From contig JAVLKG010000002.1 in assembly GCA_032128875.1 (NCBI GenBank), positions 960,001-1,024,000 of the forward strand: a stretch of 64,000 bases of DNA, read 5' to 3'. Made by a program: the position numbers and the translations under genes. The notes below the pieces were generated by a model. It searched no databases and was not told the origin of the DNA. It saw nothing but the letters and a program-made list of their open reading frames with translations. The DNA comes from Candidatus Melainabacteria bacterium 17Bon1m. GTDB taxonomy: Bacteria; Cyanobacteriota; Vampirovibrionia; Obscuribacterales; Obscuribacteraceae. Below, one piece after another: positions 5,664 through 53,946 of the stretch. Numbering within the stretch: position 1 is the stretch's first letter; the number at the start of each line of letters is the position of its first letter.

Positions 5664-5916
5664 TCCTGCAACCGCGTATTCCTCCCACCCTGGCGTAAAA
5701 ATTTTTTGTCCAGAACTGCAGTCCACTGTATAGAAGCAAGGACTGTCCTCAGTAGGTCGAGCCGACCTAACCCTTACGGAGCCCGACGAGACTTTCCAGG
5801 TTAATTCTTACGCCAATCGGTCTGGGTCTACGTGGTTTTCCCACATACAAATAAGGGAATGATATTTAAGCTGAGTGCAGCATTGGTGCTCCTTTCAGTC
5901 GCGTGAGGTTGTCAAG

Positions 5917-8900
5917 ATGGTCGAAGGGAATCAAGTTCCCGGCGGGGAAGAGATCGGCACACGGAGAGACGTTGTTGCAGAAAACAATGTCCAACCGGCA
6001 GCCGACAGATGGCAGGAAGACTACCAGCGAACGGTAGGTTTCCAGCCTCAGGATGGAACCAGCGAACGACAACAAGTCGCGGCGGGCTACGACCGCAACT
6101 TGGGTTACGACCGCATTGCCGTCGGCAATACGGCGCTCGGTCAACGCATCGACAACATCACCAATCTCCTGGCGATGGGCGAACGCTCCGCCGGAAATCT
6201 GCAAGACGTCAACCGCTTCTACGGCAGAGCACAGAAAGAAGCAGACGACCTTTTCAGTGTTGCCGCTCAGAACGTAATGAAGGGTCGCGAAGACTATCGC
6301 GCCATCCTTTCAGCAAAGAGCCCGCAAGAAGTATTTCAGGGCGTCGAAGCTTCCATTCAGAAGCAGACCCAAGTATTGCAACAACAACTTCAGCAAGAAA
6401 GAGATCCTGCCAGAGCCAGACGACTCGAGCAGATTCTTGCCATGGAGCAAGAGCGCGCTCAGACTCTCGAGCGCATGAAGCAGACGAATAACCCGCAAGA
6501 ACTGAACCGTCTATTAATGTACGACGCGTTCAGTGCTCAGCGTATAGATCTATCTCAGAAGATGATGAATGAGAGAGATCCCAATCAAGTTAGATTGATG
6601 GCCGAAGCAGAACAGAATCTGCACACGGTACAGCGTGCACCTGGTTTTACGCGCGCCAATTACGGCATGCTCCTGATGCGTATGGGGCAATACGATCCAA
6701 ATAGACCGGACAACGCCGCGTTGCGCGCACTTCAAGATGCCGCGTCAGTTGATCCTGAAATGGTCCCTAATCCTAATAGTGCAGATCCGGCACGCCGCAT
6801 GGGCGATCCTAATTTCATGCGCGTTGCATCTGACATCACTCGCATGAGTCCGGACGATCCGAATTTTGCCCGCGCGATGGCCCCTATCTTTAATAGGGAT
6901 ATCAACCGCTCGCCTTCACCGTTGCAGGCTGCAGAAAATACAAATCCGAATGCACGTTATTCGCAAGTTCAAGAACAGCCCTACCAACCTGCAAGAGATG
7001 GCGGTAATCGCCCGCTCGAGCAACAACGCGTAACTGATCAAACACAAGGAGTTACTCCTCTGGTCAATGGAAAGACTCCTTTCCAGCGCGTACAAGAATT
7101 GGGAAAAGTTGTCGAAGCGCAAGGTTTGACACCTGATGTCCGTCAGGCTTATGTATCAGCGATTCAAGATTCTGATAAAGGGACCTCGCCGCGTGTAGCG
7201 GAGCTGCAAGCCCAGCTGGCTCAGCTCGAGCAAAAACAGCAAGCACTCGCTCAAAAGGTTCAAGAAGTTCAGCAAAGTCCTGAAATTGCACAGCTCGTTC
7301 AGTCCGGTATGGCCAAACTGAAGGCACGTCCTGAAGCTGAGCAGCAGCAATTGAAGGCTTTGACCGAGCAATTGCAGAAAACTCAAGATAAAGCGGAGCG
7401 TGAAAAACTGCTCGGCGATATCAATAAGATCTGTCCGGAATTTGTTCAAGTCACAAAATTGCTCGAACAGAAGCTGAAGCCGTTTACCGACGAGCTTCAA
7501 CAAATTCAGCAACAAGGGGCCGCTCTCACCAATGATCTGATTGGTGAAATGAATCAGTCTTCCGCCACTCGCATGGAATATGCCGAGAAGCTCATGAAGT
7601 CTGACAAGCCGGAAGACAAAGAGGCTGCCAAACAACTCCTTATCGAGTCTGTCGCCAAAGCAAAACCGGAACAGCGTGAAGCCTTCGCACAATACGCTCA
7701 GCAGTTGGGACTGACGAAGCAAGAACTCGAACAGGGTCTTGCAAAGATTCCTCAAGCACAAGTCGAGCGTTCCGCCACTCAGCCGGGAGCACAGCCAGGC
7801 GTAGAAACCGGTGAAAGAACCGGCGCCGGCAAACTAATCGACGAAAACAAAAAAGCTTTTGACGCTGCTCAAGACAAGAAAGCCAAACTGGCTGAAATGC
7901 AGGGTTCGTTCAAGAAAGCGATCACTGACGCCGACAAAGAATTCGCCGACGCAGAGACCAGATATAACGCTCTGGATGCAGCTCACACTAAAGCCGCCAA
8001 TGACATGCCGGCTGAGGACAAAGCTAAGTTCCAGAAGATGTTGACGCAAGGCACTCCGGATGCCGAAAAGCAAGCTCTGCAGCAAGAGCTTTCGACCAAG
8101 TACGCAAATATCGTCCAGATGGAAACAGAAATGAAAGCCATCAAAGACGGTGCCCTCGATCTGGCGCTCAACAAATTCGAAGCTCGCTACGAATTTGCCC
8201 GCGCATCGAATTTGGGCGGCGATGATGCCACTGCTAAAGCAATGATGTCCGAAGGGATCAAGACCCTCACTAAGGATGTAGGCACTGAGCTGACCGCCAA
8301 GGTGATGGAAGATCCAGGCGTTGCAGATGTGGCTAAGAAACTCGGCGTTGATGCGAATGCACTGATGAAAGAGGCAGCCGCCGAAGCTCCAGCTGCACAA
8401 CCGGGCAGTGATACCGCAGGCGCTACCGGTGACTTGCAAGGCACCTTGCGCGTTGCTAATGCTCGCATGCAGAAGGGCGATATTGCCGGCGCCAAGCAAG
8501 CTTACGAATCAGCCATCAAGATGGTTGATGCTTCATTCAATCCTGACGAGAACAACAGGAAGATCAAAGAAGCTCAAGATCTACTCGAAAAAGGCAATCT
8601 CACGATTGAGCAGCGCCTGCAAAAACAACAGGAAATTGCAGGTTATTTCAACCAAGCCTACCAGGCATTCGATATAAGAAGCGGATACGCCAGAATTTTG
8701 GCGCACCCGAACTACAATCAAAACGCCGCCGCTGAAGCAGCATTCAAAGATGCGGTGGCCGCAGCAGACAAAGTACCGGTTCAAGCAATGAAGCGTCAAA
8801 TCGGCTTGCTTGCAAACGATATCGGTACCTTCCAAACTGCATACGAACAAGCGACCGGCGACAGAAAGACTCAAATCGAACAAGCGCAGGCTTTCCTTAG

Positions 8901-11313: not shown

Positions 11314-11317
11314 AATC

Positions 11318-11343
11318 GTGGCTTCTGCTTGCGTAGAAGCCAC
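11318..11343 (+). terminator. Strong hairpin after the giant ORF (terminator or 3' stabiliser; weak U-tract)
   Basis: GTGGCTTCT-GCTTGCGT-AGAAGCCAC, perfect 9-bp stem 4 nt after the stop. Confidence 0.55.
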
Positions 11344-11592
11344 ACTGATTCCTGAAATTCGTGGAGGCGAATTATCAAAACGGGGTTATATTATAGATAA
11401 GATTTTTTATCTGGAGATTCCTGACTAAGGAACCTCCGGATAGCTACTTAAGGGACCCAGGAAAGCAAATTGAGCAGCGGAGATTTAGCCCAAAACAGCC
11501 AGAGAGTGTCCAGAAAGTTTGTATCCCGTATACATGCAGACAAGCACCTTTGCGCTACCAAATTTGCTCTCCGAAAAGAGGTTACTACCTAA

Positions 11593-14500
11593 ATGGTTGA
11601 ACGAAATCAGTACGAGCCAAGTCTGAAGCCCATCAATCAGGGCGACGTCCAAGGTGAAGGTGAAAACCAGAACACCGAAAACGCCCAATTGACGTATTCA
11701 GATGTTATGCGTGCCAAATACGAAGCACCGCAACGCGCCGAGACTCAACAAGTTTCCGATCGTACTAATGTTTCCGACGTCAAAGATCCGGACATCATCA
11801 AAGCTTTCACTCTGGTAGACAATGCCAAAGAAGCATCGATGCTTCTCAATATTCAAGAAAGCAAACAGCCCGACAACACAAAAGTTGAGATGGCTGATGC
11901 TAATGGTCGTCCATTTACTATTACTCTTGGCGAACTCAAGCAAAAGCTCATTGAAGATTTGACAAAGAATTCTGATTTTAAAGGATTCAACGATGCTGGT
12001 CAGCTGAGAGAATTCATCAGCAAGTCTACAGACGCCGCGCTTACTCTCAGCACACAAACCAGAGAGAAGTACGAGGCAAAATCAAGAGAGAGCGATACCA
12101 ACGTCAATGCTCGCAACGAGTTGGCTAAGCAACTTGGTTTTCAACCAACCACCCGTGAAATTCCGGACGGCAATGGCGGCAAGAAGTCCGTAACCTCTTA
12201 CGATATTACTCAAAAGGATATCGATGCCCGTTTGGCTACAACCACAGATGCTGGTCAGAAAGCCAACCTCGAAAAGCTCAAAGGTCTTTTGACCAATTAC
12301 GACAGTATTCAAAAAGAACGCAACGCACTTTCGGCCGTTGACGTTACCGCTGCTCAGTTGATGATGGGCGGTTTCACTCACAAGGCCGGTGAGCAAACTC
12401 TCGAAGGGTTGCCTGCAACCAGAAGCGAAGTTATGCGCTCTTACGAGATCATGAACAAGGCCGGTCGCGGCAACGCTCAACTCGAGCAGACTCCTCAGTT
12501 CCAAATGGTGAAGGAGCAATCCAGCGCCATGTACGCCGACATCCAACTGCAACGCAGCAAAGATGCCGTCAATGCGCTGCAGGAAGCAGACAAATTGAGA
12601 GTCGCCGGCAAGCCCACCGAAGCTCAAGCAAAGTACGAAGAAGCCCTTCAGAAAGTGAAAGGCGTCGACATGGCAACGATTACCACTCAGTGGCAATCGC
12701 AAATGAGAGAGTTCAATACTGTTCAAGAGAAATTGACCGCGCTCGGCAATCCTCCTTCCAATCCGCAAGAAGCGCAGCGTCTTGCTACCGAACTTCAACA
12801 GCGCCAACAAATCGGTTTGCAACTCGAGCAAATCATTCAAGTCGGCAAAGAAGTAAAAACCGAATACGCACGTTTTCTCAATGAGCAAGGCAAGCCTGGC
12901 GAAGCGCTTCCGCTCTTGACCAGCGTCGCTTCCGGAACTCCTCAAGAATTGCTCGCCGGTGATACTACTTTCACCGAGCAGTTGGAAAAAGCTCAAAGCC
13001 TCGGCTCGATCACCAGCGGTGATGCCGAAAAGCACCGCGTCCTTTATGAACAAGCGATGGCTTCCAAAGATTGGACGACTGCCGAGCGCGAAATGGCTGC
13101 TCTCAAAGCTGCTTCAACCAAAGCATCTGAAGCCACCATCCAAGGTGCCAAAGATCGCGTCGCCGTAATGGACAAGAGACAAGCAGAGCTCAAGGCCGAA
13201 GCGGAAGACTTGAAAAAGAACACCACTATGGATGCTGATGCAAAAGCTCTTCGTCAACAACAAATTGATGCAGAGTTGAAAGGCTACGATGTTCTGCGCA
13301 AAGGGTTGTCCGATGGAATTCCGGCTGCCGAGAAAGCTGCTAAAGAGCATGCTAATCAGCTTCGCTACATGGAAGGCATCATTGCTTATTCCAAAGAAGA
13401 CAAAGAAACAGCACACAAAATCTTCAAAGAACTGGAAGCAGAAGCGCCAGAAATCGCCAGCAACAAAGACTACCAATTGGATGCTTTGCTCGAAGACACT
13501 CGCAAGAAAGGCTGGCTCGAGCGTCACTGGGATACGATTGTGAGCGTAGGCAAGATTGTTGCCGTAGTTGGTGCAATCGCTGTTGCCGGTGCAGTCACCG
13601 GTGGTGTCGGAGCAGTCGCACTCGCTGGTGCACTCGGCGCCGCTGGCGTATTCACTGTCGGCGCTGTCGGACACGGTGTTGCCAAAGCCAACGACTGGAA
13701 GTCCACAGACAACTATCACAACTGGAGACCAGGACAAGATTTGCTTATGGGTGCAGCCGGCGGCGCCGGCGGTGCTGCATTGCAAGGACTGTTCGCTGCC
13801 GGCGGAACCGCTGGTTTGGGCGGCAGAATGGTGGCAGCCGGCGGCAGAATTGCTGCAGCAGAAGGCGGCGCAACATTCGGCTCGACAGCTCTCAATGTAG
13901 GCGGCAACGCTCTCATCAGAGGCACTCAACTGGCATCACAAGCCACCACCTTCAAGGGTGCTCTCACCGTGGGTGCTACCTACGGATATGGCGGCGAAGC
14001 AGTAAACTCGTTGACTACCGGAAAACAATTCAGCTTTGGCGATGCCACCAGCAAGACTGCTGGCATGAGCACAGCCCTCTTCTTAGCCGGCAGGACTGGT
14101 GGACTTGGTTCATTCAAGGGCTCGATGGTATACGGCGGCGTCCGAACCGTAGAAGAGCAAGGCAGAGATGTTGTACACGGCAAAGACATCAGTCAAGCGG
14201 CTATGGACAGTCTTGGCAGCTTCGGAAAACACAGCTTCGACGCATTTGCAGTCGGCACCATCGCCAATATGAACGCCGCAGCGCAAGCCGGCAGATTCCA
14301 ATTGGCAAGAGCATTGCCCGAAGGTCAAGCGCTCAACTGGAATTCTGCTCGTCAGTTTGCGGTCAACCTGCCAGGTGCAACCGGCAGCAACCTCCTGTCG
14401 CAAGGCAGATTGGTGTTCAAAGAAGGCATGACCATGACCGGCAAGCAAGGCGCCGTTGTGGGCGCGCTCGGTACCGGACTTGTAGGCTGGCAAGTGCACC

Positions 14501-14643
14501 AAGGTGATGTTGCTTACGATGAAAGCCGCACTGCCAAGACCTGGGATACTCAGGATAATATGACCCGCATGAGAATGAACCAAACAATGGAAGCACTCTC
14601 AAAACCAGTGCCAAAACCGGTCATCAGACGTCCGCAACCGTAA
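11593..14643 (+). CDS. Large hypothetical protein (1016 aa): coiled-coil/TPR-like N-half, glycine-zipper hydrophobic C-half
   Basis: 3-kb ORF; GAGG RBS; hydrophobic block VGKIVAVVGAIAVAGAVTGGVGAVALAGALGAAGVFTVGAVG. Confidence 0.9.
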   Translation: MVERNQYEPSLKPINQGDVQGEGENQNTENAQLTYSDVMRAKYEAPQRAETQQVSDRTNVSDVKDPDIIKAFTLVDNAKEASMLLNIQESKQPDNTKVEMADANGRPFTITLGELKQKLIEDLTKNSDFKGFNDAGQLREFISKSTDAALTLSTQTREKYEAKSRESDTNVNARNELAKQLGFQPTTREIPDGNGGKKSVTSYDITQKDIDARLATTTDAGQKANLEKLKGLLTNYDSIQKERNALSAVDVTAAQLMMGGFTHKAGEQTLEGLPATRSEVMRSYEIMNKAGRGNAQLEQTPQFQMVKEQSSAMYADIQLQRSKDAVNALQEADKLRVAGKPTEAQAKYEEALQKVKGVDMATITTQWQSQMREFNTVQEKLTALGNPPSNPQEAQRLATELQQRQQIGLQLEQIIQVGKEVKTEYARFLNEQGKPGEALPLLTSVASGTPQELLAGDTTFTEQLEKAQSLGSITSGDAEKHRVLYEQAMASKDWTTAEREMAALKAASTKASEATIQGAKDRVAVMDKRQAELKAEAEDLKKNTTMDADAKALRQQQIDAELKGYDVLRKGLSDGIPAAEKAAKEHANQLRYMEGIIAYSKEDKETAHKIFKELEAEAPEIASNKDYQLDALLEDTRKKGWLERHWDTIVSVGKIVAVVGAIAVAGAVTGGVGAVALAGALGAAGVFTVGAVGHGVAKANDWKSTDNYHNWRPGQDLLMGAAGGAGGAALQGLFAAGGTAGLGGRMVAAGGRIAAAEGGATFGSTALNVGGNALIRGTQLASQATTFKGALTVGATYGYGGEAVNSLTTGKQFSFGDATSKTAGMSTALFLAGRTGGLGSFKGSMVYGGVRTVEEQGRDVVHGKDISQAAMDSLGSFGKHSFDAFAVGTIANMNAAAQAGRFQLARALPEGQALNWNSARQFAVNLPGATGSNLLSQGRLVFKEGMTMTGKQGAVVGALGTGLVGWQVHQGDVAYDESRTAKTWDTQDNMTRMRMNQTMEALSKPVPKPVIRRPQP

Positions 14644-43556: not shown

Positions 43557-46208
43557 ATGAGCCTACACTCGCTCGTCCAACTGAAGAATCAGATTGCCGA
43601 CCCGACTAAACTCAGTCGTCCTCTTCGGTATCTGTTGCTCTTCTTTGCAGTTATTGTTCCTCTTGTAATTCACTATTATCCGTATTTGTTCGGCGGGCGC
43701 TCTTTTGTGTCTTCCGATCATCATCTTTTCTTTGAACCGTTTTGCCGCTTCATGGGAGACGCGTATAGAGAAGGGCGTCTGCCTTTGTGGAACCGCTGGC
43801 TGTATTTTGGAATGCCGCAATTCGCCTTGCCGTCTCCATCATATTTGTATCCACCCACTTTGTTGTATGCGCTGTTTTCGTATAGCCAAGGACTTTCGAT
43901 ACAGCAAATTCTGCATCACAGCGTTGCTGCTATTGGTGGGTGTCTACTTGCTGAAAGCCTTGGTTTGAGCTTTGGCGCATCAGCATGTGCCGGGCTGGCT
44001 TTTGCATTTAGCGGATACATGTTTACTTTGAGCGCTAATTATTCGCTTGTTGCTGGTGTTAGCTGGCTTCCCATGGCATTGTTTGCATCGCGCAGAATAC
44101 GTTTTGCAGAAACGCTCGCGCAGCGATCGCAGTGGATAATTGTCCTTTCAGTCTGTGTTTTCCTGATGATCAGTGCCGGCCGACCTGAGGTTTTTGTGCC
44201 GGTTATGGTGATTGTTCTGGCGCACGCTCTGACGGGTATTGGACGTCATTACTTGTTGAAGTTCAAAACTAGCTGGAAGCGACAAGCGGACATTGAAACG
44301 ATCGATCCGGCAGCACAACTGCATGACGAGAGACCGTTGAAACTTTTCTTTTGCCGTTTGCTTGCCCTGGCGATTGGTGGCTGCCTTTGTATGCCGTTGC
44401 TGTTACCGGCGCTCGAATGGGCTTCTGGTTCGACTCGAGCGAAAGGACTTGATCCTAGTGAAGTAACTATCTGGAGTGCAAATTGGTACAGCTTTCTGAC
44501 AATGATTTTGGCGCAACCGTTTGGCGATTTGCAGACAATCGGTAACGCCTTCTTGCCTGTCGCAGCTGACCGCGCTGCCTACATGCCTTTCCTGCCATCT
44601 GCTTATGTTGGCGCGGCCGTTTTTACTTTAGCAATACTTGGTCTCTTTCATACTCGCTCACCATGGCTGGTGCCTGTTGGTTTGTTGCTGGTGGCAGGAA
44701 CTACATTCTCGCTGGGGCGTTACACGCCAATTTTGCCGTGGTTGATTCATACCTTCCCATCACTGGCTGTTTTTCGCTATCCGGTTAAGCTGCTTATCCT
44801 GCCGATTATGGCGCTGTGTCTGCTTGCCGCTTTTGGGATTCAAGCTGCTAAAGACAATCGCATCGGCTACAAAGCGCTGCAAAAAATGGCGCTATTTTGG
44901 ATTGTGGTGATGCTGGGAGGCATTCTATCTGTCTTTCTAGGAAGGTATTGGCTCACCCTACAATCCGCAAAACTCGGCATCAATTCTGAGATTGCAATTG
45001 CTATTGGCACGGCGGTCTTTCACAGCGGTGCAATTGGTCTGACAATGGTGTCAATTTGCATTTTGCGCTACAAAAATCTCTTAGGCCATTTTGGTTTTAT
45101 TCTCTTTACCGGCTTGCTTCTAACGATGGACTTGTTTGGGACATCTATTCGTTTTCCCGCATTGTCAGCGCCTTCAAGCTTTTACAGTGATAAGCCCATT
45201 GTTGTAAAAATGCTGGAGAAACAAGTTGGCGAGTCCGCGATTTCAAAAACGCGAGTCTTGAATATTTACTACGATCCGCTGGCAGCTCCTGCCTCTACCT
45301 TCCAGGGAGAGCCCAGGGAGCGGACTCTTAAATACTACAGATACTGCCGTGATTTGCTTGTTTGCAATAGCAATATGGACTACGGTGTGCAGCAGGCTTA
45401 CGGATACGAAGGAACATTGTCTGCAAAATACAGGCATCTTGCTCTCAGTATCATCAATGATATAAGAAACGCCAGCGCCGCCGAAGAAAACGAAAAGGAT
45501 GCGAAGGTCGGCAGCGACAGTGTTTTCGATGAGCGCATGCGCAGGTTTGCAGACGCCGCAGGTCTTCAGTTTGTCACCTGTCAGCTTCGACGTGATGGGC
45601 AGAAACAACCGGATCTTTCTTTTGACGATTTCGAGATTGTAGAAGATATCGATTCGAAAAACATTCGACTATACAAAGTGAGACGCCCGAAAGCGAGAGT
45701 TGAACTCACTGAGCATTGGACATGGGTTGACACTACTGAACAAGCATTTCAAATTTTGCAGGTGGAGAAGGCTAAAGATAATGGATTGTCCTTGATGCCG
45801 CTTATTGAGAAACGAAAGGACGAGAACAAGTCATATCCTCTGGGTTTTGTCAGCGAGTGTACACCCAGCAAAGCCACATGTGAAATATTGTGCGACAAGC
45901 CTGAGCATGTCACTGTCTCTGTCAATGTGCCCCGTCCTTGTATGTTGATTTTGCGAGATCAGTTTTATCCTGGATGGAAGGCGCTCCTTGATTCAGTATC
46001 AGTGCCCATCTATCGAGCTAATGGATTTACAAGGGCGGTGTATGTACCGGCTGGTGCTCATGCCATCGAGTTTAATTACAAACCTGATAGCTTGAAATAT
46101 GGCGTGCGTATCGCCCTTGTTGCTCTTGCAGCTTTAGCTGTGCTTGCTTTTTTAGCTTTTGCACCTGGTGTCTGGCGTTTTGTGAAATGGACGGCCGGAC
46201 AAAACTGA
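43557..46208 (+). CDS. YfhO-family (GT-C fold) membrane protein
   Basis: GRLPLWNRWLYFGMP, FRYPVK, FYPGWKA...YRANGFTRAVYVPAGAHAIEFNY. Confidence 0.85.
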   Translation: MSLHSLVQLKNQIADPTKLSRPLRYLLLFFAVIVPLVIHYYPYLFGGRSFVSSDHHLFFEPFCRFMGDAYREGRLPLWNRWLYFGMPQFALPSPSYLYPPTLLYALFSYSQGLSIQQILHHSVAAIGGCLLAESLGLSFGASACAGLAFAFSGYMFTLSANYSLVAGVSWLPMALFASRRIRFAETLAQRSQWIIVLSVCVFLMISAGRPEVFVPVMVIVLAHALTGIGRHYLLKFKTSWKRQADIETIDPAAQLHDERPLKLFFCRLLALAIGGCLCMPLLLPALEWASGSTRAKGLDPSEVTIWSANWYSFLTMILAQPFGDLQTIGNAFLPVAADRAAYMPFLPSAYVGAAVFTLAILGLFHTRSPWLVPVGLLLVAGTTFSLGRYTPILPWLIHTFPSLAVFRYPVKLLILPIMALCLLAAFGIQAAKDNRIGYKALQKMALFWIVVMLGGILSVFLGRYWLTLQSAKLGINSEIAIAIGTAVFHSGAIGLTMVSICILRYKNLLGHFGFILFTGLLLTMDLFGTSIRFPALSAPSSFYSDKPIVVKMLEKQVGESAISKTRVLNIYYDPLAAPASTFQGEPRERTLKYYRYCRDLLVCNSNMDYGVQQAYGYEGTLSAKYRHLALSIINDIRNASAAEENEKDAKVGSDSVFDERMRRFADAAGLQFVTCQLRRDGQKQPDLSFDDFEIVEDIDSKNIRLYKVRRPKARVELTEHWTWVDTTEQAFQILQVEKAKDNGLSLMPLIEKRKDENKSYPLGFVSECTPSKATCEILCDKPEHVTVSVNVPRPCMLILRDQFYPGWKALLDSVSVPIYRANGFTRAVYVPAGAHAIEFNYKPDSLKYGVRIALVALAALAVLAFLAFAPGVWRFVKWTAGQN

Positions 46209-46254
46209 GTTGCAATGATGCTAGGATCATAGGTACCGTTGATGAGAGTTTTTT

Positions 46255-46328
46255 GCCCTCTTAGTTCAGCTGGATAGAACACCTCCGTCCTAAGGAGGGT
46301 GTCGGGGGTTCGAATCCCTCAGAGGGTG
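46255..46328 (+). tRNA. tRNA-Arg (anticodon CCT); CCA not encoded
   Basis: Acceptor GCCCTCT/AGAGGGT, D arm GTTC/GAAC with A20, anticodon stem CCTCC/GGAGG with loop GT-CCT-AA, T arm GGGGG-TTCGAAT-CCCTC. Confidence 0.95.
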
Positions 46329-46338
46329 CTTACTACGC

Positions 46339-46380
46339 AAAAGGGAAAGGCGATCCCCATGCCTTTCCCTTTTACTTTTT
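46339..46380 (+). terminator. Intrinsic, likely bidirectional terminator after the tRNA
   Basis: AAAAGGGAAAGGC-N9-GCCTTTCCCTTTT perfect inverted repeat followed by ACTTTTT. Confidence 0.88.
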
Positions 46381-46571
46381 GGAACCGATTTTTCAATCGA
46401 TTCATATAACTGTCAGTTGATTTGCTCTATAGGCAAGTCCTTTCTAGTTAGGGTGTGTTCGATTTGAAAGAAAGCGTAAGCTGTCCCTCCTATTTCTAGT
46501 CAGTTGTAATAGAACTTCGGTTTTACGTCACAGCCGTTCTTGCCTGGTGTGTAGAAGCAAGATGGCTACTA

Positions 46572-46592
46572 CTTCTTCTTCTTCTTCTTCTT
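46572..46592. repeat. (CTT)7 intergenic microsatellite
   Basis: Seven perfect CTT units just beyond the ssb stop. Confidence 0.85.
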
Positions 46593-46605
46593 CGGAATAA
46601 ACTTT

Positions 46606-47151
46606 CTATGCTGTTTTGGCGCGCTTTCTGCCCCCTTTTACTGGTGGCGTATCGGCGAAAACGCCTTTCACTCTTTCGACGATTTCTTCGTCTTCCTCTT
46701 CATCTCCAGCGTCTTCATCAACTTCGTCGAAGTCTTCATCTTCGATATCAGCTTCTTTGTATTTGACACTGCGTACAGATTCACCTTTGGCGAATGTTCT
46801 ACTCATGTCTATTTCACCTCCTGAAAAATCTGTCTGAGAACGTCTAGGAAAGGCGATTTGATCTGCATTTACCACAGGTGTAACTCTCGCTTGACCGTTT
46901 TTGTCGGTCCAACGATCAAGCGTGAGTCTTCCTGTCGCGGTCACCTGCTGCCCTTTATCCAGATATTGTCCGGCGAGTTCAGCAAGGCGGCCCCACGCTA
47001 CAACGTTGTAGTAGTCCGCAGATTCACTTTCGCTCTTTTTAGCGTGATTAACGGCTACGACAAAAGTAGTTTTTAGCTTTCCACTGGCAAGTTGTATCTG
47101 CTCGGGAGCCTTCACGAGATTCCCCACTATTGAAATATTGGCAAGACCCAT
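46606..47151 (-). CDS. ssb: Single-stranded DNA-binding protein with atypical C-terminal tail
   Basis: NISIVGNLVKAPE, VAWGRLAE, YLDKGQQV..TGRL; GGAGG RBS before ATG 47151. Confidence 0.88.
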   Translation of the reverse strand: MGLANISIVGNLVKAPEQIQLASGKLKTTFVVAVNHAKKSESESADYYNVVAWGRLAELAGQYLDKGQQVTATGRLTLDRWTDKNGQARVTPVVNADQIAFPRRSQTDFSGGEIDMSRTFAKGESVRSVKYKEADIEDEDFDEVDEDAGDEEEDEEIVERVKGVFADTPPVKGGRKRAKTA

Positions 47152-47324
47152 AACTCTACCTCCGTCAGGCTTGCTGCCTGCATAAGGGGTACGACTCAAG
47201 TGAAGTGGGGAGATGATTAAAAGTTAGCATGCCATACATGCGTATGTCAACTCTTGACTTTTTCTTGATAGAAAACGCCGTCTCCTGGGCTTTGCGGCTC
47301 GATTGATAGCTGTATGGTGGTGGT

Positions 47325-48539
47325 ATGAATCTATTGCTGTATCGGTATCGTGAGGCACGGCCATGTGTGCAAGTGCCGGAGTTAAAACTCGTGATTCAGA
47401 GCTCCGCTGACTGGTTTCAACGGTATAGATTTTGTCAACCGCTCGGACAGGGCGGCATGGGCGTGATTTATCTTGCCGAAGATAAGGCTCAGGGCAATAT
47501 TCAATGCGTCGTAAAACAGCTGATAAGTAAACCTAGCAATCCAGATGAACAATTCGAAGCAGAGCGACTATTCAAAAGAGAAGTAGAAATACTTAGGCAG
47601 CTCGATCACTCGGGTATCGTTCGTTTCTCCGATTTCCATGTTACTGATGACGGCAAATACTTCCTGGTAATGGATTATGTTCCAGGTAAAAACCTGGATA
47701 GCATCGTGCAGAATTATGGTCCATTCGGCTCCGAGGCAACCGTAGAAATTGGTATTCAGTGCTGCGAGGTTCTCGAATATCTGCATGAAAGAGATTACCC
47801 AATCATATATAGGGACCTGAAGCCGAGCAACTTGATGCTCACTCCAGAGGGGCAGATCGTATTTATAGATTTCGGCATCGCGCGCATGTTCATGCCGAAG
47901 CAAGCAGCAACACGAGTCGTTACAGCAGGCTACTCGCCGCCTGAACAATATTTCGGCCGACCAGAAACGCGAAGTGACTTGTATGCACTTGGCGCTACTC
48001 TTGGACATTTATGCACGGGTGTTCGTCCAAAACCGCTCACCGTCAGCGCTCCTGGTATTACCCATCCAGCTGTAATTCCAGAACTGGACGATCTAATTAG
48101 AAGGATGACTGCTCACAATCCGGAAGATAGACCGTTCAGTGCACGCGAAGTTCGATATGAGCTGTACAAGATCTATCACAGCATGCATCCCGATTTCGAA
48201 ATTCCAGAGGAAGCCTTGGTGCCAGTGCAAGCAGCTGTAGCGCCAAAGAAAGAGGGGCCACCAACTAATCCAAATTTGCGTTCCGGTTTGCACAGTGATT
48301 CGAGCAAGCGTCCAGCGAATTGGCTCGAGCGAGAACAGCCAAAAGAAGATGACATTCAGAAGGTAACGAGAAAAGACGCAGAAAGAGTGAATCCTGCCGA
48401 TGTGCAGCACGCACGCCGGACGAGTGAGAGATTGACTCGTCCTGATGCCAGAGACTCTAACTACAGGCGAAGAAACTCGCAATCGCAGCCAGCACCACAA
48501 ACCTTCTGGGATAAGCTCAGGCAATTTTTTAGCAAATAA
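47325..48539 (+). CDS. Hanks-type Ser/Thr protein kinase, cytoplasmic, with low-complexity C-tail (start may be a GTG near 47367-47373)
   Basis: LGQGGMGVIY, VVK, YRDLKPSN, DFG, GYSPPEQ, DLYALG. Confidence 0.93.
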   Translation: MNLLLYRYREARPCVQVPELKLVIQSSADWFQRYRFCQPLGQGGMGVIYLAEDKAQGNIQCVVKQLISKPSNPDEQFEAERLFKREVEILRQLDHSGIVRFSDFHVTDDGKYFLVMDYVPGKNLDSIVQNYGPFGSEATVEIGIQCCEVLEYLHERDYPIIYRDLKPSNLMLTPEGQIVFIDFGIARMFMPKQAATRVVTAGYSPPEQYFGRPETRSDLYALGATLGHLCTGVRPKPLTVSAPGITHPAVIPELDDLIRRMTAHNPEDRPFSAREVRYELYKIYHSMHPDFEIPEEALVPVQAAVAPKKEGPPTNPNLRSGLHSDSSKRPANWLEREQPKEDDIQKVTRKDAERVNPADVQHARRTSERLTRPDARDSNYRRRNSQSQPAPQTFWDKLRQFFSK

Positions 48540-48678
48540 ACGTATTTTCGGATATTCTTGTGCCTCACCTGGAGCAAGTAAATGCAGAAGTTTAACCGTT
48601 ATCGGTCAAACTTCCAGACGTCACCGGCTGGATCTGGCTGGCATCTTGGCATTCTAGTAAATGTGCTGGCTGAGCGTA

Positions 48679-48731
48679 TTGACAATCATGCTCTGGCGGG
48701 CGTACGATAGTAAGCGTAAGAAACACAATAA
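48679..48731 (+). promoter_or_regulatory. Sigma70-type promoter of the vWA/purA-like operon with a candidate GT-N7-AC operator at the start site
   Basis: TTGACA (48679-84), N18, TACGAT (48703-08); TAAGC-GT-AAGAAAC-AC-AATAA at 48711-31. Confidence 0.55.
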
Positions 48732-48909
48732 CTAGGTGAATCCAGAGACGTGGCCTGTACGGGATAATTTGTTGGGTTCGCAACTATCAACCTACGCTTT
48801 GCAGCTGGAAGTTTCCGCTGCGCATGGATTTGCTCAACGAAATCGAAAGAGAACGGCATCACAGGTGGTGCTGCGATCTAATGCGAGCAATTTCAAAGGA
48901 GAATGTGTC

Positions 48910-49812
48910 ATGGGTTATGCAAGATGGAATCATGATGACTGGGACGACTATGTAAGAGGCAATATTCGAAAGTCTATAGATGAGATCTTCAGCAATCGTC
49001 TTGATCCAGAGTTAGACCCTAAGAATGTCAGCTTCAGGGAGTCGCGTGATTCGGCAGAAAATCCTCTTTCGACTCCTATCATTGTTGCTGTTGACCAGAC
49101 AGGCTCGATGGGTTTTCTCGCTGAAAGTCTGATAAGAGAAGGGTTGGGAATTCTTGTCGAATCTATTTACGAGAGAAAGCCGGTTACTGATCCGCACGTC
49201 ATGTGTATGGCTCTGGGAGATGCTTGGTGCGATCGGGCTCCACTGCAGGTAACGCAGTTCGAAGCCGATATCAGAATTGCAGAGCAGCTCTCAAAGTTTT
49301 ACATCGAAGCAAACGGTGGCGGTAACAACTTCGAGAGCTATAACCTGCCATGGTACTTTGCTGCGACGCGCACCAGATGTGATGCTTGGTTGAGACGCCA
49401 AAGGAAAGGTTATCTGTTTACTGTCGGTGACGAACCACCGCCCCCCGAGCTGAAGGTCGAGCATGTCAAAACATTCCTGGGCGGTGGACTGCAGCGCGAC
49501 ACAAGCTCAAAAGAGCTGTTAAGGCTAACCTCACAGACTTGGCAGGTCATTCATATCATTACCGAAGAGGGTTCGTATTATCGCTCGCGACCTAAGCAAA
49601 CCAGCGACGCTTGGGCGAGCTTGCTCGGTAAAAGGGCGATTTCATTGAGTGATCATCGAAATCTTCCGGAGCTAATTGTTTCGATCATGCAGGTCCTGCA
49701 AGGAGAAAATCCGCAAGAGGTGGCTTACAGCTGGTCGGGAAAAACGGCTTCAGTGCTCATGAATGCGCTGAAAGGGCTGGCCGAACCATACGTTCCCTTC
49801 ATCAGCGCGTAG
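48910..49812 (+). CDS. von Willebrand factor A (MIDAS) domain protein
   Basis: AAAGGAG RBS, ATG 48910; IIVAVDQTGSMG (DxTxS), GGGNNFESY, GYLFTVGDE. Confidence 0.85.
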   Translation: MGYARWNHDDWDDYVRGNIRKSIDEIFSNRLDPELDPKNVSFRESRDSAENPLSTPIIVAVDQTGSMGFLAESLIREGLGILVESIYERKPVTDPHVMCMALGDAWCDRAPLQVTQFEADIRIAEQLSKFYIEANGGGNNFESYNLPWYFAATRTRCDAWLRRQRKGYLFTVGDEPPPPELKVEHVKTFLGGGLQRDTSSKELLRLTSQTWQVIHIITEEGSYYRSRPKQTSDAWASLLGKRAISLSDHRNLPELIVSIMQVLQGENPQEVAYSWSGKTASVLMNALKGLAEPYVPFISA

Positions 49813-49838
49813 CTGTCAGCTATAAGGAGGACACCATT

Positions 49839-51035
49839 ATGAGAACTGGAATTGCTGTGATTGGAGCCAACTATGGCGACGAAGGGAAGGGATTGGTTAC
49901 TGATTTCATCACCAATCAACTGGCAGCAGAATGCTCCGTCGTTAGATTCAACGGCGGAGCGCAGGCTGGGCACACTGTCGTGACGCCGGATGGAAGGAGG
50001 CATGTTTTCAGCCATATTGGCGCTGGTTCTTTTAGTGGTTGTCCCACCTACTTATCGCAGTTCTTCGTCGTCAATCCGCGACTATTCGTAAAGGAATTGG
50101 CCGATCTCACTTGTATAGGAGTACAACCACGGGTCTTGATTGATCCAAGGTGCTTTGTCACAACTCCAATCGATGTACTTGTAAATCAGGCACTTGAGCG
50201 GAAGCGTGGAACCAAACGTCATGGAAGTTGTGGCGTCGGAATCAATGAAACTGTGACCCGTTGTTTACGGTCGACTGAATTTGCAACCCAGGCCCAGGAG
50301 CTTTTAAATCCAAGTTTGTTTGAGCGCAAACTACTGCATGTTTTTCGAAACTGGCTTCCTCAGAGGCTTGTGGAGCTAAATATCGATCTGGAAGAATCAA
50401 TAATTCAAGAGGCGTTCAAACAATCTGAGTCGATAGCTTCAAGATTTATCTGTGAATGCGAATCTCTATTGAACGCATCGCAGATCACTTTTCGAATTCC
50501 GGATACTCGCTTTGTTGTGTTCGAAGGCGCTCAGGGCTTGATGCTTGATGAAAACAGGCTGGATCAATTTCCTCACGTCACTCGCTCGAAGACCGGTCTT
50601 GAGAACATAGGTTTCTTGTTCCAAAAGTATGGTCTTGAAGAAATGCAAGTCAATTACGTCTCTCGAACATACCTGACCAAGCATGGAGCCGGTCCTTTGC
50701 CAGGCGAGTGTTCATGGCGGTTTCCGGACGCGACGAACGTTGCTAACCCATACCAGGGAACTCTTCGCTACGCGCCGCTGAATATTGATAATCTGAACTA
50801 TTCAATTGATTTGGATTTGAAACGAGGAAAGTATCTGTTTCCAAATCTCTCGGCTGGCATTGCCTTCACCTGTACAGATCAGCTTGAAATGCCGGATATG
50901 CGAAGGCTACCTCTGGCGGTAAACATGGTTAGCCGCGGTCCGAAAAGAGGTGATATCGAAGTTCTAGACGGCGCGAATTATTTAAAGAGTGCTTTAAAAC
51001 CAATTTCACGAGCAAGAGCAGTCTTACGCGCATAG
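49839..51035 (+). CDS. Divergent adenylosuccinate synthetase-like (PurA superfamily) enzyme
   Basis: GANYGDEGKG, GGAQAGHTV, FEGAQG, FPHVTRS, TKHGAGPLP; AAGGAGG RBS; lacks the canonical TTGRxRR loop. Confidence 0.88.
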   Translation: MRTGIAVIGANYGDEGKGLVTDFITNQLAAECSVVRFNGGAQAGHTVVTPDGRRHVFSHIGAGSFSGCPTYLSQFFVVNPRLFVKELADLTCIGVQPRVLIDPRCFVTTPIDVLVNQALERKRGTKRHGSCGVGINETVTRCLRSTEFATQAQELLNPSLFERKLLHVFRNWLPQRLVELNIDLEESIIQEAFKQSESIASRFICECESLLNASQITFRIPDTRFVVFEGAQGLMLDENRLDQFPHVTRSKTGLENIGFLFQKYGLEEMQVNYVSRTYLTKHGAGPLPGECSWRFPDATNVANPYQGTLRYAPLNIDNLNYSIDLDLKRGKYLFPNLSAGIAFTCTDQLEMPDMRRLPLAVNMVSRGPKRGDIEVLDGANYLKSALKPISRARAVLRA

Positions 51036-52219
51036 GTATCTTCTGCTCGGTCCAAAATGGTCGTGATTACTTCAGTATAAAACTGTGGGGGTTTGCAGTT
51101 CATCCAGAGGTAGAAAGAAAATGAACCAGGAATAGTATTGATTTCATTGAAATAGAGCACGTTGGTTCTCTTGTCCAGCATGAAATCGATTCTGGAAACA
51201 CCCGAACAATTGAGGACTTTGAAGGCTTTGACCGCATACTCACGAGCACGCTCTTTAAGCTCTTCCGGAAGGTCCGGCGGGTCTATAACGCGCGTCAATG
51301 AAGCCATACCGGCAACAGAATTGTCGCCTTTCTTGCTGCCGCCCCTCAAATATTTGTCTTCGTAAGTAAGTTCATCTCCTGAGGACGAGACAGGAATTTC
51401 GACTACCGATGCTTTTGGTTCTCCATCGTCAAGGACTGAGACATTCATTTCCATCTTGTCGTCCAAGCACGGCTCGACAATTGCACCGACGTCGTATTTC
51501 AACGCCAGGACAATTGCCGAGTTGAATTCTTCAATGTTGCGAACCTTCGCCACGCCGATGCTAGAGCCTAGGTTCAGCGGTTTTACGAATAGGGGAAAAT
51601 TTTCCAAACCTGGATGTTGCAATACCTGATCGCGCAGGAAGTCGAGGTGATTGCCATAGTCAGCTTCAATCGACTCTCGTTTTACAACCACTCCGGGTAG
51701 AACTGGAATACCATGGCTTTCAACCAATTTTTTCGCATGGTACTTACTCATCCCCAATGCTGAAGCGAGTACATTGCAGCCGGTGTACGGGACATCAGCC
51801 AGCTCCAAAAGCCCCTGTATGCAACCATCTTCGCCGTAGGTGCCGTGGAAAGCAGGCAAGAAAATATCCACGTGAATAACGGATTCGGATGTTTTGCTAA
51901 GCATCGAATACGGTGCCTTGCCCGAAGATTTTGGACGCCGGATGGTTAGACCCTTAATATTTGGCTCTGGCAAAAGCGTCACTTCATCAACGCTTCCGAG
52001 TGATCCAGGCATGCGTCGGTAAAAACTTTTGTCGTACAAAGCATCACCGCTGTACCACTTGCCTTGTGGAGAAATATAAACAGGGATCGGTTTGTACTTC
52101 ACCGTGTCCATCGCTTTGATAAGCTGCAAGCCGGTGATAATCGAGATCTCGTGCTCAACTGAGCGCCCACCAAAGAGCACCGCCACTGCTTTTCTTTTCT
52201 TGTCACCGTTGGTGTTCAT
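50978..52219 (-). CDS. ddl: D-alanine--D-alanine ligase
   Basis: FGGRSVEHEIS, HGTYGEDG, FVKPLNLGSSIGV, YEDKY, RIDF, NEINTIPGS. Confidence 0.94.
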   Translation of the reverse strand: MNTNGDKKRKAVAVLFGGRSVEHEISIITGLQLIKAMDTVKYKPIPVYISPQGKWYSGDALYDKSFYRRMPGSLGSVDEVTLLPEPNIKGLTIRRPKSSGKAPYSMLSKTSESVIHVDIFLPAFHGTYGEDGCIQGLLELADVPYTGCNVLASALGMSKYHAKKLVESHGIPVLPGVVVKRESIEADYGNHLDFLRDQVLQHPGLENFPLFVKPLNLGSSIGVAKVRNIEEFNSAIVLALKYDVGAIVEPCLDDKMEMNVSVLDDGEPKASVVEIPVSSSGDELTYEDKYLRGGSKKGDNSVAGMASLTRVIDPPDLPEELKERAREYAVKAFKVLNCSGVSRIDFMLDKRTNVLYFNEINTIPGSFSFYLWMNCKPPQFYTEVITTILDRAEDTYARKTALAREIGFKALFK

Positions 52220-52233
52220 GCAGGCAGAGCTTC

Positions 52234-53946
52234 CTAAAATACCGGGACAGTTTCATAAAGGTCGGGCAGGTCGTTTTCAATCAAGACCGTATCGCCGTCC
52301 TGGCAATAATCGTGACCAAGGAAGCTGAATGCTTCCGACATTTTGTCGAATTCTTTGATTTTTTCCGCAGGCATCCCGCCTTGTGAAAGCCCATCCATGA
52401 GTGCTTGCCGGTTTGTTGTTCCGACAATTGCAACCATGTCACAGATGCTGGCCGCTATTTGTGCGGCTTTCTTGTTCTCTTCAAACTGTTTTTCGCCAAG
52501 CTCAACCATGCCTGGCGTCACCAGTACGCGCCGACCGTCTTTCTGCTCGGAGAGAACTTCAAGTGCAGCGGCAAATCCCACCGGATTGGAATTGTAAGCA
52601 TCGTTCAGACGCAGTACCCGTCCCTGTCGAATCGGCTTACTGCTGCTGCCGGCCGCAACGAATGATGCAGGGGTTGTTTTAACCGGCTCCAGTCGATTGC
52701 TTTCCGTTTTTACATGACGAATGGCTGCAATCACTAGCTGTGGATTCATTCCCAGCGAAACAGCCATTGTGAATGACGCCAGAATATTTCCTAGCATCGG
52801 CTTGCCCAGCAGCTTAGTGAAACCTTGATATGTCTGCCCTTCGTAATCGATGGAGAAGTAGGTCCCGTCCGCCGTCGCTTGTATGTTGTGCATGTAGGCA
52901 TCGAGGTGACCGTTGCTATTGTCCAACCCGTACAGTTTTGTGATGCGCTTGGGGTTTTCTTTTGCAACGCGGCGGCAATACTCACTGTCTCCGTTCACGA
53001 CTAAGATGCCGTCCGAAGGAACTGCCTGCGCTAGCTCAGACTTCGCCTTAAAGACGTTTTCGTGAGAGCCGAATCTTTCCAGGTGCATTCCGCCAATTGC
53101 CGTAATAATAGCGGCGTCGGGCGGCGTCAGAGTGCACATACGTTTTATCGAACCGATGTAATAGGCTCCCATTTCAACAACCGCAAACCGATGGCCGGGA
53201 CGCATGCGCTCGCGAATTTCGCGTGTCATGCCCATATAGCTGTTGATGCTGCGAGGAGTGCTGAATGTTGCTCCCACGGTTGAAAGAATATCGGCAAGGA
53301 TAACTTTCGTGCTTGTTTTTCCGTAGCTGCCTGTGATTCCAATGATTTTAGGCTTTACAGATTTGACGATGCTGCGCGCTTCATTCGCGAAATTCTCTTG
53401 CAGATCCTTCTCTTTGCCGGAAAGGATTTGATTTGCCAAAACAAGGAATAGAGGCTGTGCCTGAATAAGTACGATAGACGCAAAAAGGAAAATCGGGACA
53501 ATATTCTTGCCGCCGGCAAACCATACAATTAATGCCAGTAAGATCGTCGTCGCTATGTAAAGCCACATAGCAAGCCGGAAGATGCGTTTCGCCCGCTCCG
53601 TCATTTTGAGCGTGATTTTTCCGGTTCCGGTCGGATCTTCTTCTTGTTTTGCCAGACGAAACATCGCCATACACGCAAAAACACTAGTTAAAAACGACCC
53701 TCTATCATCAACAGAAAGATAGAATGCCGAAAGCGCACCGCAGAAAAGCGTTGTCAGTGAGCCCTTCTTATCGAACGCGCGCTTTTCAATAATCCAGTCG
53801 ATGAAGCGTTTTCCTTCATATTCTTGCTGTTGGAAATATTGAAGATAGCGCATCCCACGCTTTTCGAAAAATCCGATTGTGCCCAGTCCGGCAAGAGCGA
53901 GACCAACCATTACTGATTCGGGAGAGGCCGAGAATTCTTCAAACAT
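52234..53946 (-). CDS. murF: MurF-type Mur ligase with N-terminal transmembrane segments
   Basis: GITGSYGKTSTK, VVEMGA, NDAYNSNP, TPGMVELG; next to ddl. Confidence 0.85.
   Translation of the reverse strand: MFEEFSASPESVMVGLALAGLGTIGFFEKRGMRYLQYFQQQEYEGKRFIDWIIEKRAFDKKGSLTTLFCGALSAFYLSVDDRGSFLTSVFACMAMFRLAKQEEDPTGTGKITLKMTERAKRIFRLAMWLYIATTILLALIVWFAGGKNIVPIFLFASIVLIQAQPLFLVLANQILSGKEKDLQENFANEARSIVKSVKPKIIGITGSYGKTSTKVILADILSTVGATFSTPRSINSYMGMTREIRERMRPGHRFAVVEMGAYYIGSIKRMCTLTPPDAAIITAIGGMHLERFGSHENVFKAKSELAQAVPSDGILVVNGDSEYCRRVAKENPKRITKLYGLDNSNGHLDAYMHNIQATADGTYFSIDYEGQTYQGFTKLLGKPMLGNILASFTMAVSLGMNPQLVIAAIRHVKTESNRLEPVKTTPASFVAAGSSSKPIRQGRVLRLNDAYNSNPVGFAAALEVLSEQKDGRRVLVTPGMVELGEKQFEENKKAAQIAASICDMVAIVGTTNRQALMDGLSQGGMPAEKIKEFDKMSEAFSFLGHDYCQDGDTVLIENDLPDLYETVPVF

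Follow-up and report, generated by a model that had tools for sequence, protein, structure and literature searches.

A vWA-like gene and a divergent adenylosuccinate-synthetase superfamily gene form a conserved pair in Candidatus Melainabacteria bacterium 17Bon1m and in other bacteria, phages and plasmids

The DNA analysed, hereafter called the window, is a stretch of 64,000 nucleotides from Candidatus Melainabacteria bacterium 17Bon1m (GenBank assembly GCA_032128875.1, contig JAVLKG010000002.1, positions 960,001 to 1,024,000 of the forward strand). It contains two adjacent genes, hereafter called A and B, encoding a vWA-like protein and a divergent member of the adenylosuccinate-synthetase superfamily. 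A is the obligate genomic partner of B, and the pair in the window is the minimal two-gene form of a module that was not found described in print: a full-text literature search gave no description of a vWA plus PurA-like pair or module. The reading preferred here, held with somewhat better than even confidence, is that a widespread module has its minimal core in these two genes, a vWA/MIDAS (metal ion-dependent adhesion site) protein being paired with a ligase that uses GTP and belongs to a third superfamily branch. The two genes are:

48910..49812, + strand: gene A, 300 amino acids, vWA-like
49839..51035, + strand: gene B, 398 amino acids, adenylosuccinate-synthetase superfamily

The linkage of the two genes was surveyed by scanning one genome per species with a profile of A. 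The survey gave 80 loci, 78 of them with an A open reading frame (ORF), from Obscuribacterales/Melainabacteria, Competibacteraceae, several Alphaproteobacteria, Acidobacteriota, Actinomycetota, Myxococcota and Bdellovibrionales. Seventy-four loci had room downstream of A and could be tested for B, which followed A directly and on the same strand in 72 of them. The original prediction, made from the letters of the window alone, had proposed this partnership and had named the lack of a conserved vWA linkage among homologues as an observation that would speak against it; the linkage is borne out. In one of the two exceptions, from a Candidatus Competibacter (L040, 6875-9655), B lies 1.4 kb downstream of A and is split in two ORFs, which may reflect an insertion or a frameshift; in the other, B was probably cut off by the end of the contig. 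Tandem duplicates of the vWA-like gene before a single PurA-like gene were observed in Mesorhizobium sp. SP-1A (L077, 6053-6985 and 7001-7909) and also in locus L053.

The pair is also carried by phages and plasmids. In a collection of 50,697 phage records, B matched 238 and A 219, including 201 and 200, respectively, from phages of Mycobacterium, 10 and 10 from phages of Rhizobium and 6 and 6 from phages of Vibrio. In the three phage records that were opened, the A-like gene lay upstream of the B-like gene; the two were immediate neighbours in the phages of Vibrio and Rhizobium, and a single small ORF separated them in the mycobacteriophage. The window protein A shared 49 % identity with its counterpart in the Vibrio phage, 43 % with that in the Rhizobium phage and 32 % with that in the mycobacteriophage. 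A further matched 21 of 72,556 plasmids, all of them large; the gene order in the one plasmid opened, pAtS4e of Allorhizobium ampelinum, was NUDIX (divergent), hypothetical, A-like and 'adenylosuccinate synthetase'. Homologues of A numbered 4324 at E ≤ 0.001, and compared with these 4324 unfused homologues there were two predicted proteins in which an N-terminal A is fused to a C-terminal B (P0242, 652 amino acids, and P0243, 715 amino acids), which may be real or may be artefacts of gene calling.

Gene B was recognised by the Pfam family PF00709 (E 2e-43), over positions 1-277 of the 416 of the profile only, and by phrog_1211 (E 3e-56). Its scores with the models of PurA itself were low, about 109 bits (108.7-109.5) with TIGR00184 against a cut-off of 395.55, 121.7 bits with NF002223 against a cut-off of 402, and 85-122 bits across all the NCBIfam PurA equivalogs against cut-offs of 395-700. 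With the PurZ model NF038379, B scored 44.7 bits against a cut-off of 300. The structure predicted for B with AlphaFold had a mean predicted local distance difference test (pLDDT) value of 83.2, and its top Foldseek matches were all adenylosuccinate synthetases (TM-score 0.59-0.67), with PurZ/PurZ0 structures at ranks 15 and 29. Residues 4-291 of B could be aligned with the solved E. coli PurA by phmmer, and hhalign aligned the canonical PurA profile with the B family through the aspartate loop (probability 100, E 1e-39).

A MAFFT alignment of 51 rows, made up of 33 B-like sequences, 13 canonical PurAs and 5 PurZs from phages, was used for a tree and for a site table. In the tree, the B-like, PurA and PurZ rows each fell on one side of a branch, with SH-like approximate likelihood ratio test (SH-aLRT) supports of 99, 97 and 99, respectively, so that the comparison with PurA and PurZ recommended in the original prediction left the B-like rows on a branch of their own (SH-aLRT 99). 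The B family is, as judged by sequence comparison, a third branch of the adenylosuccinate-synthetase superfamily beside PurA and PurZ. The model scores, the tree and the site table all agree with the earlier view that B should be counted neither among the canonical PurA enzymes nor with PurZ.

A whole-genome profile search found one B and one PurA. The canonical purA, encoded elsewhere in the genome, scored 512.8 bits with TIGR00184, above the cut-off of 395.55, and its product has the motifs GTTKRGIG, TTGRPRR and TKLD; B is thus not the only purA of the genome. Public records name B homologues 'adenylosuccinate synthase' or 'adenylosuccinate synthetase', and the family goes under '2-aminooxy adenylosuccinate synthetase' in PHROG and in several phage records.

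The motifs GDEGKG, AGHT, EGAQG, PHVT, HGSCGVG, TNVANPYQGTLR and TCTD, which the original prediction had read as counterparts of PurA motifs, were all present in the translation of B, and the reading was correct, the equivalences being given by phmmer, hhalign and MAFFT. That of TKLD and TCTD comes from the MAFFT alignment and the fold, there being no significant sequence alignment in this part. The state of the PurA sites in the B family is as follows, in E. coli PurA numbering and as counts among the 33 B-like rows:

Catalysis, D13, K16, H41, Q224 and T239: each kept in 33/33
GTP base, D333: kept in 32/33
GTP base, S414: kept in 29/33
GTP base, K331: C in 30/33
5'-phosphate of inosine 5'-monophosphate (IMP), N38: Q in 32/33
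IMP 5'-phosphate, T128: S in 33/33
IMP 5'-phosphate, T129: C in 31/33
IMP 5'-phosphate, R131: hydrophobic
IMP 5'-phosphate, R143 (of the partner subunit): not conserved, S/A/P/D
Pocket, S240: R in 31/33
Pocket, V273: H in 33/33
Aspartate loop, T300: aromatic
Aspartate loop, T301: Q in 33/33
Aspartate loop, R303: deleted in 33/33
Aspartate loop, R305: L in 27/33

Compared with PurA (EC 6.3.4.4; E. coli 1ADE, 1CG0), the B family has the same PF00709 fold, the GDEGKG P-loop, Asp13, Lys16, His41, Gln224 and Thr239 of the catalytic set and probably the GTP-base contacts Asp333 and Ser414. It differs in being without the long C-terminal insert, in the IMP 5'-phosphate clamp, of which Asn38, Thr128/Thr129 and Arg143 are not retained, in the loss of the aspartate loop (Thr300-Thr301-Gly-Arg303-x-Arg305), in the change of K331 to C and in being paired with a vWA-like gene (72/74 loci). 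A gap of four residues in the aspartate loop of the B family was placed independently by hhalign. New invariant residues of the family, in the numbering of B, are His128, Cys131, Arg249, His282 and Gln306. As read from the alignment, the catalytic and the probable GTP-binding residues of B are under strong constraint, and both substrate pockets are rebuilt.

PurZ and PurZ0 (6FM1, 7ODX, 7VF6) are, like B, divergent, short members of the superfamily carried by phages. The PurZ rows, however, have Ser13 and keep R305, R306 and R143 (5/5), whereas B keeps Asp13 and has lost these arginines, and PurZ genes adjoin genes for a DNA polymerase and a dATPase, whereas B adjoins a vWA gene. PMC12884076, a paper of 2026, states that each of its 147 phage PurZ sequences has Ser in place of Asp13, and sorts 767 PF00709 homologues into 251 PurA and 151 PurZ, with the remainder not discussed in the pertinent passages.

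Gene A had no match in Pfam, NCBIfam or PADLOC, and a sequence search against solved structures returned 0 matches at E ≤ 1; it matched phrog_2971, a family of unknown function, at E 4e-42. The conserved parts of the family, invariant in 19 bacterial rows, are Met1-Gly2, D62-x-T64-x-S66, the block GDAW..PLQ..QFE.D...GGGN..ESY..WYFAAT and LFTxGDE. The MIDAS motif of vWA proteins reads DxSxS, followed by a later Thr and by an Asp at the end of strand 4; in A it reads DxTxS, and the MIDAS-type set D62, T64, S66, T155 and D174 was invariant in 19/19 bacterial rows. In an alignment of 10 bacterial and phage rows, Met1-Gly2, D62, S66, T155 and D174 were again invariant, and T64 was present in 9/10. 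The Foldseek matches of the A model in the PDB had probabilities of 0.97-1.0, and the leads from a protein atlas, at 0.81-0.85 (below 0.9), also pointed to vWA. A is regarded with moderate confidence as a vWA-like protein with a MIDAS-type site. Prediction of an A-B complex, with both proteins supplied as alignments, scored 0.00 in two runs without controls and was uninformative on binding.

In other lineages the pair has further partners. Neighbouring ORFs of the loci were clustered and 10 representatives were annotated. Directly upstream of the pair in 45/67 testable loci there was a gene for a J-domain pseudokinase-like protein of approximately 357 amino acids, with an HPD motif, a degenerate kinase-like core and, in the consensus, a degenerate catalytic loop. 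A regulator gene with NUDIX and NrtR_WHD domains was found within 2.5 kb upstream, mostly divergent, in 31/67 loci, and the pseudokinase and NrtR-like genes occurred together in 21. Fusions of PP2C and kinase, or kinases, were present in 9/80 loci. The gene annotated as a 'Ser/Thr kinase' beside the pair in mycobacteriophages encodes a homologue of the J-domain pseudokinase (hidden Markov model E 2e-23). In the Rhizobium phage, a phosphoribosyltransferase-like gene and one for NMNAT/NUDIX are found at approximately 3-4 kb from the pair. An association of such pairs with kinases and NUDIX/NrtR genes, mentioned in the original prediction, is real in both bacteria and phages; the kinase partner, however, is the J-domain pseudokinase-like protein, which was not found in this genome. 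Its profile had no match in the window, and its sole match in the whole genome (93 % complete), at E 1e-4 and next to the canonical purA, was an ordinary DnaJ and was set aside.

Candidate operators are tandem palindromic boxes of the type TTATTTGCAAAA(A/T)ACAAATAA, which stand approximately 1.1-1.2 kb upstream of the vWA-like gene, in the interval that separates the operon from a divergent NrtR-like gene, in loci of Competibacteraceae and related ones (L036, L037, L040, L047, L063, L085 and others). The NrtR regulators of Rodionov and colleagues (2008) are reportedly Nudix-related regulators of NAD (nicotinamide adenine dinucleotide) metabolism that respond to ADP-ribose. In comparison with such regulons, a NUDIX plus NrtR_WHD gene is near the module in the 31/67 loci of other lineages, but none is beside the pair in the window. 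A link of the module to NAD and ADP-ribose is suggested by these regulators and by the NAD-salvage-type genes near the pair in the Rhizobium phage. No paper mentioning both NrtR and adenylosuccinate was found in a full-text search.

In the window, the pair lies between the gene of a Hanks-type kinase and ddl, as originally described. The features around it are:

47325-48539: Hanks-type Ser/Thr kinase gene, upstream of A (Pkinase E 2e-36)
48540..50977, + strand: cassette, the stretch without counterpart in a congener (blastn, junctions aligned)
48585..48616, no strand assigned: hairpin with a 14-bp stem, 3' of the kinase gene, of the TWAACCGTTAWCGGTTWA palindrome family
48679..48708, + strand: promoter-like TTGACA-18-TACGAT, approximately 200 nt upstream of gene A
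48896..48901, + strand: ribosome-binding site AAGGAG of gene A, 8 nt before ATG 48910
49825..49830, + strand: ribosome-binding site AGGAGG of gene B, 8 nt before ATG 49839
50978-52219, - strand: ddl, convergent with gene B

The tight two-gene unit seen in the original prediction was confirmed, with a gap of 26 nt between A and B (49813-49838) and a strong ribosome-binding site before each gene. The ORF of A is open from GTG 48736; its start was taken as ATG 48910 because 19/19 aligned homologues begin at the corresponding Met-Gly. The promoter-like site upstream of A matches 10/12 consensus positions, and a promoter scan of the region gave 5 sites against 7.4 expected by chance. Since such sites are not above chance, the consensus match is weak when taken alone and the support comes from conservation: both hexamers and the next 25 nt are kept in the relatives L006 and L027, which have the same arrangement. 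The pair thus appears to have a promoter-like site of its own. A structured RNA in the leader of approximately 200 nt was set aside as a candidate, as the leader matched no Rfam family at E ≤ 1 and its fold was of unremarkable stability (z-score 0.12).

At its 3' end, gene B overlaps the 3' end of ddl by 58 nt on opposite strands (50978-51035), and the last 19 codons of B are the antisense strand of the end of ddl. The C-terminal tail of B (..ALKPISRA.AVLRA) was limited to the closest relatives (the window, P0002 and P0009). The ddl gene also adjoins the pair in those loci of relatives that were checked (L006, L007, L010 and L027). The neighbours of the pair in the window are housekeeping genes (SSB, ddl and mur genes) and do not form a defence island.

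The pair is a dispensable cassette, as indicated by an empty site in one congener and a decayed remnant in another. In the congener G257 (94 % complete), the kinase gene (93.8 % identity) lies next to ddl (97.1 %), with no counterpart of 48540-50977. In the blastn alignment, window positions 46000-48539 corresponded to L108 4810-7353, and 50978-52500 to L108 7370-8890; direct repeats or the signature of a mobile element were not visible in the alignment of the empty-site junctions. In the congener G254 (L109, G254:C134, approximately 1302-1789), only residues 231-398 of B are left, in two pieces, and A is absent; this remnant, flanked by the same kinase and ddl, shows the cassette in a naturally occurring pseudogene state. 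A was present in 4/12 congeners, 10/36 genomes of the family and 0/24 genomes of other families in the class, and in 2/251 genomes of an even sample of the phylum, many of the genomes counted being incomplete.

The Hanks kinase stays beside ddl in G257, where the pair is missing. Its adjacency looks incidental, because that congener keeps it at 94 % identity without the pair and a hairpin separates it from A, and the kinase was rejected as a functional partner. It is unrelated to the J-domain protein, is only marginally similar to the phage protein and, with generic kinase models, gave the only match to PADLOC. TerY-P-type triads, known from the work of Aravind's group, are said to consist of a vWA protein, a PP2C phosphatase and a Ser/Thr kinase. 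A vWA-type gene adjoins a Hanks kinase here as well, but a PP2C gene is not beside the pair, A is without a match to the Pfam VWA and TerY-type models, and the kinase stays without the pair in the congener.

The hairpin at 48585-48616 is kept in L006 and L027. The 18-bp palindrome TWAACCGTTAWCGGTTWA has 12 sites in the genome, G000:C2:858436-858453 and C9:209197-209214 among them, compared with 5 for a reversed control; those inspected follow immediately on a gene end or are placed between two convergent genes. The hairpin was therefore rejected as an operator, since this palindrome family sits at the 3' ends of genes, and is likely to be a lineage-specific terminator or a repetitive extragenic palindromic (REP)-like element that splits the kinase and A-B transcripts.

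With B read as a GTP-dependent ligase, the module could work as follows. B would bind GTP, and its Asp14 and His45 (own numbering) would place the gamma-phosphate of GTP on the oxo group of a purine-like ring. The 5' end of the compound bearing this ring would not be a free phosphate monoester, so that the substrate could be a dinucleotide, an ADP-ribose-like or a nucleoside-level compound. An amine other than aspartate would then capture the activated carbon, with the vWA partner A positioning or supplying one of the reactants. In other lineages, where the module stands behind an NrtR-like regulator and a pseudokinase, it would belong to an NAD/ADP-ribose-linked nucleotide metabolism useful to bacteria and phages alike; in this genome it would be a stand-alone, dispensable accessory operon between the Hanks kinase gene and ddl.

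Several observations count against this ligase-module reading. The tree came from a quick search, was unrooted in effect, and drew a warning of long branches meeting from the tool. Retention of the GTP-base contacts is probable, and it rests on a gappy part of the MAFFT alignment beyond the significant profile alignment. The chemistry put forward for B, in which a phosphorylated 6-oxo-purine-type substrate would be joined to some nucleophile that is not aspartate, is a proposal that fits the residue pattern. For A, the model had a mean pLDDT of 67.9, with values below 50 in the most conserved block (residues 103-146); its Foldseek matches in the PDB at E ≤ 0.001, although vWA/integrin I-type in 9/9 cases, reached TM-scores of only 0.3-0.54; and a Pfam scan of 10 members of the A family at E ≤ 10 gave chance-level matches only, VWA_CoxE being hit in 1/10 at E 0.13. 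The link to NAD and ADP-ribose is indirect, by way of neighbouring Nudix-wHTH regulators, and a NAD-salvage family was not among the recurrent neighbour clusters annotated (10 representatives). The one clear NrtR-like gene of the genome lies approximately 385 kb from the pair. The palindromes TTATTTG-N7-CAAATAA and TTGTTATT-N4-AATAACAA, enriched before the operon in other lineages, have no copy upstream of A, and an NrtR operator of either type was accordingly dismissed there.

The main rival to the ligase module, possible but doubtful, is that the pair serves in biological conflict, as an anti-phage or stress effector in bacteria and, in phages, as a counter-defence that rebuilds or removes a nucleotide arising, for example, from NAD+ depletion or from deaminated adenine nucleotides. 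Its patchiness even within the genus (4/12), with presence, absence and decay at one and the same site, and its carriage by about 220 large phages and by megaplasmids speak for such a module, and so do the NrtR-like regulator near 31/67 loci and the NAD-salvage-type genes of the Rhizobium phage. The suggestion of a stress or conflict role comes from the patchy distribution and the phage carriage. Against this, neither A nor B matched any PADLOC-DB 2.0 model at E ≤ 0.1, the neighbours in this genome are housekeeping genes, the conserved core of the neighbour clusters annotated held no toxin-like or nuclease-like effector, and a metabolic benefit common to phages and hosts would explain no less well why both carry the module. 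That B is instead a catalytically dead scaffold or sensor which binds a nucleotide, the module being a signalling device with the vWA protein and the pseudokinase, is improbable. The usual partner is indeed pseudokinase-like with a degenerate catalytic loop, and the pockets are heavily remodelled, but D13, K16, H41 and Q224 are invariant (33/33) across phyla and phages, and the new invariant polar residues H128, C131, H282 and Q306 beside the catalytic set are typical of a working enzyme. A protein-modifying ligase is a long shot rated just below this: B would join the GTP-activated C6 of a 6-oxopurine nucleotide to the alpha-amino group of the N-terminal Gly of A, which would take the place of aspartate after removal of Met1, giving an N6-(protein)-adenylate-type tag. 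The pseudokinase would recruit Hsp70 to the protein so tagged, and a connection to NAD/ADP-ribose stress would come through the NrtR-like regulator. Such tagging is allowed by the invariance of Met1-Gly2 (in the 19 bacterial and the 10 mixed rows), by the loss of the aspartate pocket and by the rare A-B fusions.

Two further readings take the public names of B at face value. If B were a genuine, though divergent, second adenylosuccinate synthetase that serves purine salvage as an isozyme, with A as an unrelated neighbour, the PF00709 fold, the full catalytic set and the name 'adenylosuccinate synthase' would be accounted for. This reading is very improbable, as R303 is deleted (33/33), T301 is Q (33) and R305 is L (27), the 5'-phosphate clamp is changed, the scores lie far under the equivalog cut-offs, a canonical purA is present, and an adjacent A in 72/74 loci is not expected of an unrelated neighbour. 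A PurZ-type enzyme making the precursor of the 2-aminoadenine (Z) nucleotide is scarcely credible: the PHROG and phage labels and the short C-terminal architecture, as in PurZ, speak for it, but Asp13 was found in 33/33 rows of the B family versus Ser in 5/5 PurZ rows, the PurZ model gave 44.7 against 300 bits, the tree sets B apart from PurZ, B is without the aspartate loop on which PurZ still depends, and neither a polymerase nor a dATPase partner was among the genes beside the pair here.

The two understood branches of the superfamily are PurA and the phage enzyme PurZ, which enables 2-aminoadenine DNA, and the A-B pair belongs to a third and large branch. Knowledge of the product of B would probably bring to light a new reaction of nucleotides, or of nucleotides with proteins, common to bacteria, megaplasmids and large phages, and the branch may be tied to NAD/ADP-ribose homeostasis. 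The current labels mislead both metabolic reconstruction and the prediction of phages with Z genomes. The genus offers natural variants with, without and with a decayed pair at one chromosomal site.

Three libraries recorded as RNA-Seq contained the whole of 46000-53000, in contigs of up to 137 kb and with a flat depth over all genes; they are uninformative on transcription and on its starts and ends because they behave like genomic DNA. Elsewhere in the window, an 883-amino acid membrane protein is encoded at 43557-46208, with a weak C-terminal match to YfhO (E 0.004, below the Pfam cut-off), and is conserved in congeners at 68-79 % identity. At 5875-14643, two very large same-strand ORFs of 1812 and 1016 amino acids coincide with a strongly positive AT skew of 0.17-0.24 over 6-14 kb.

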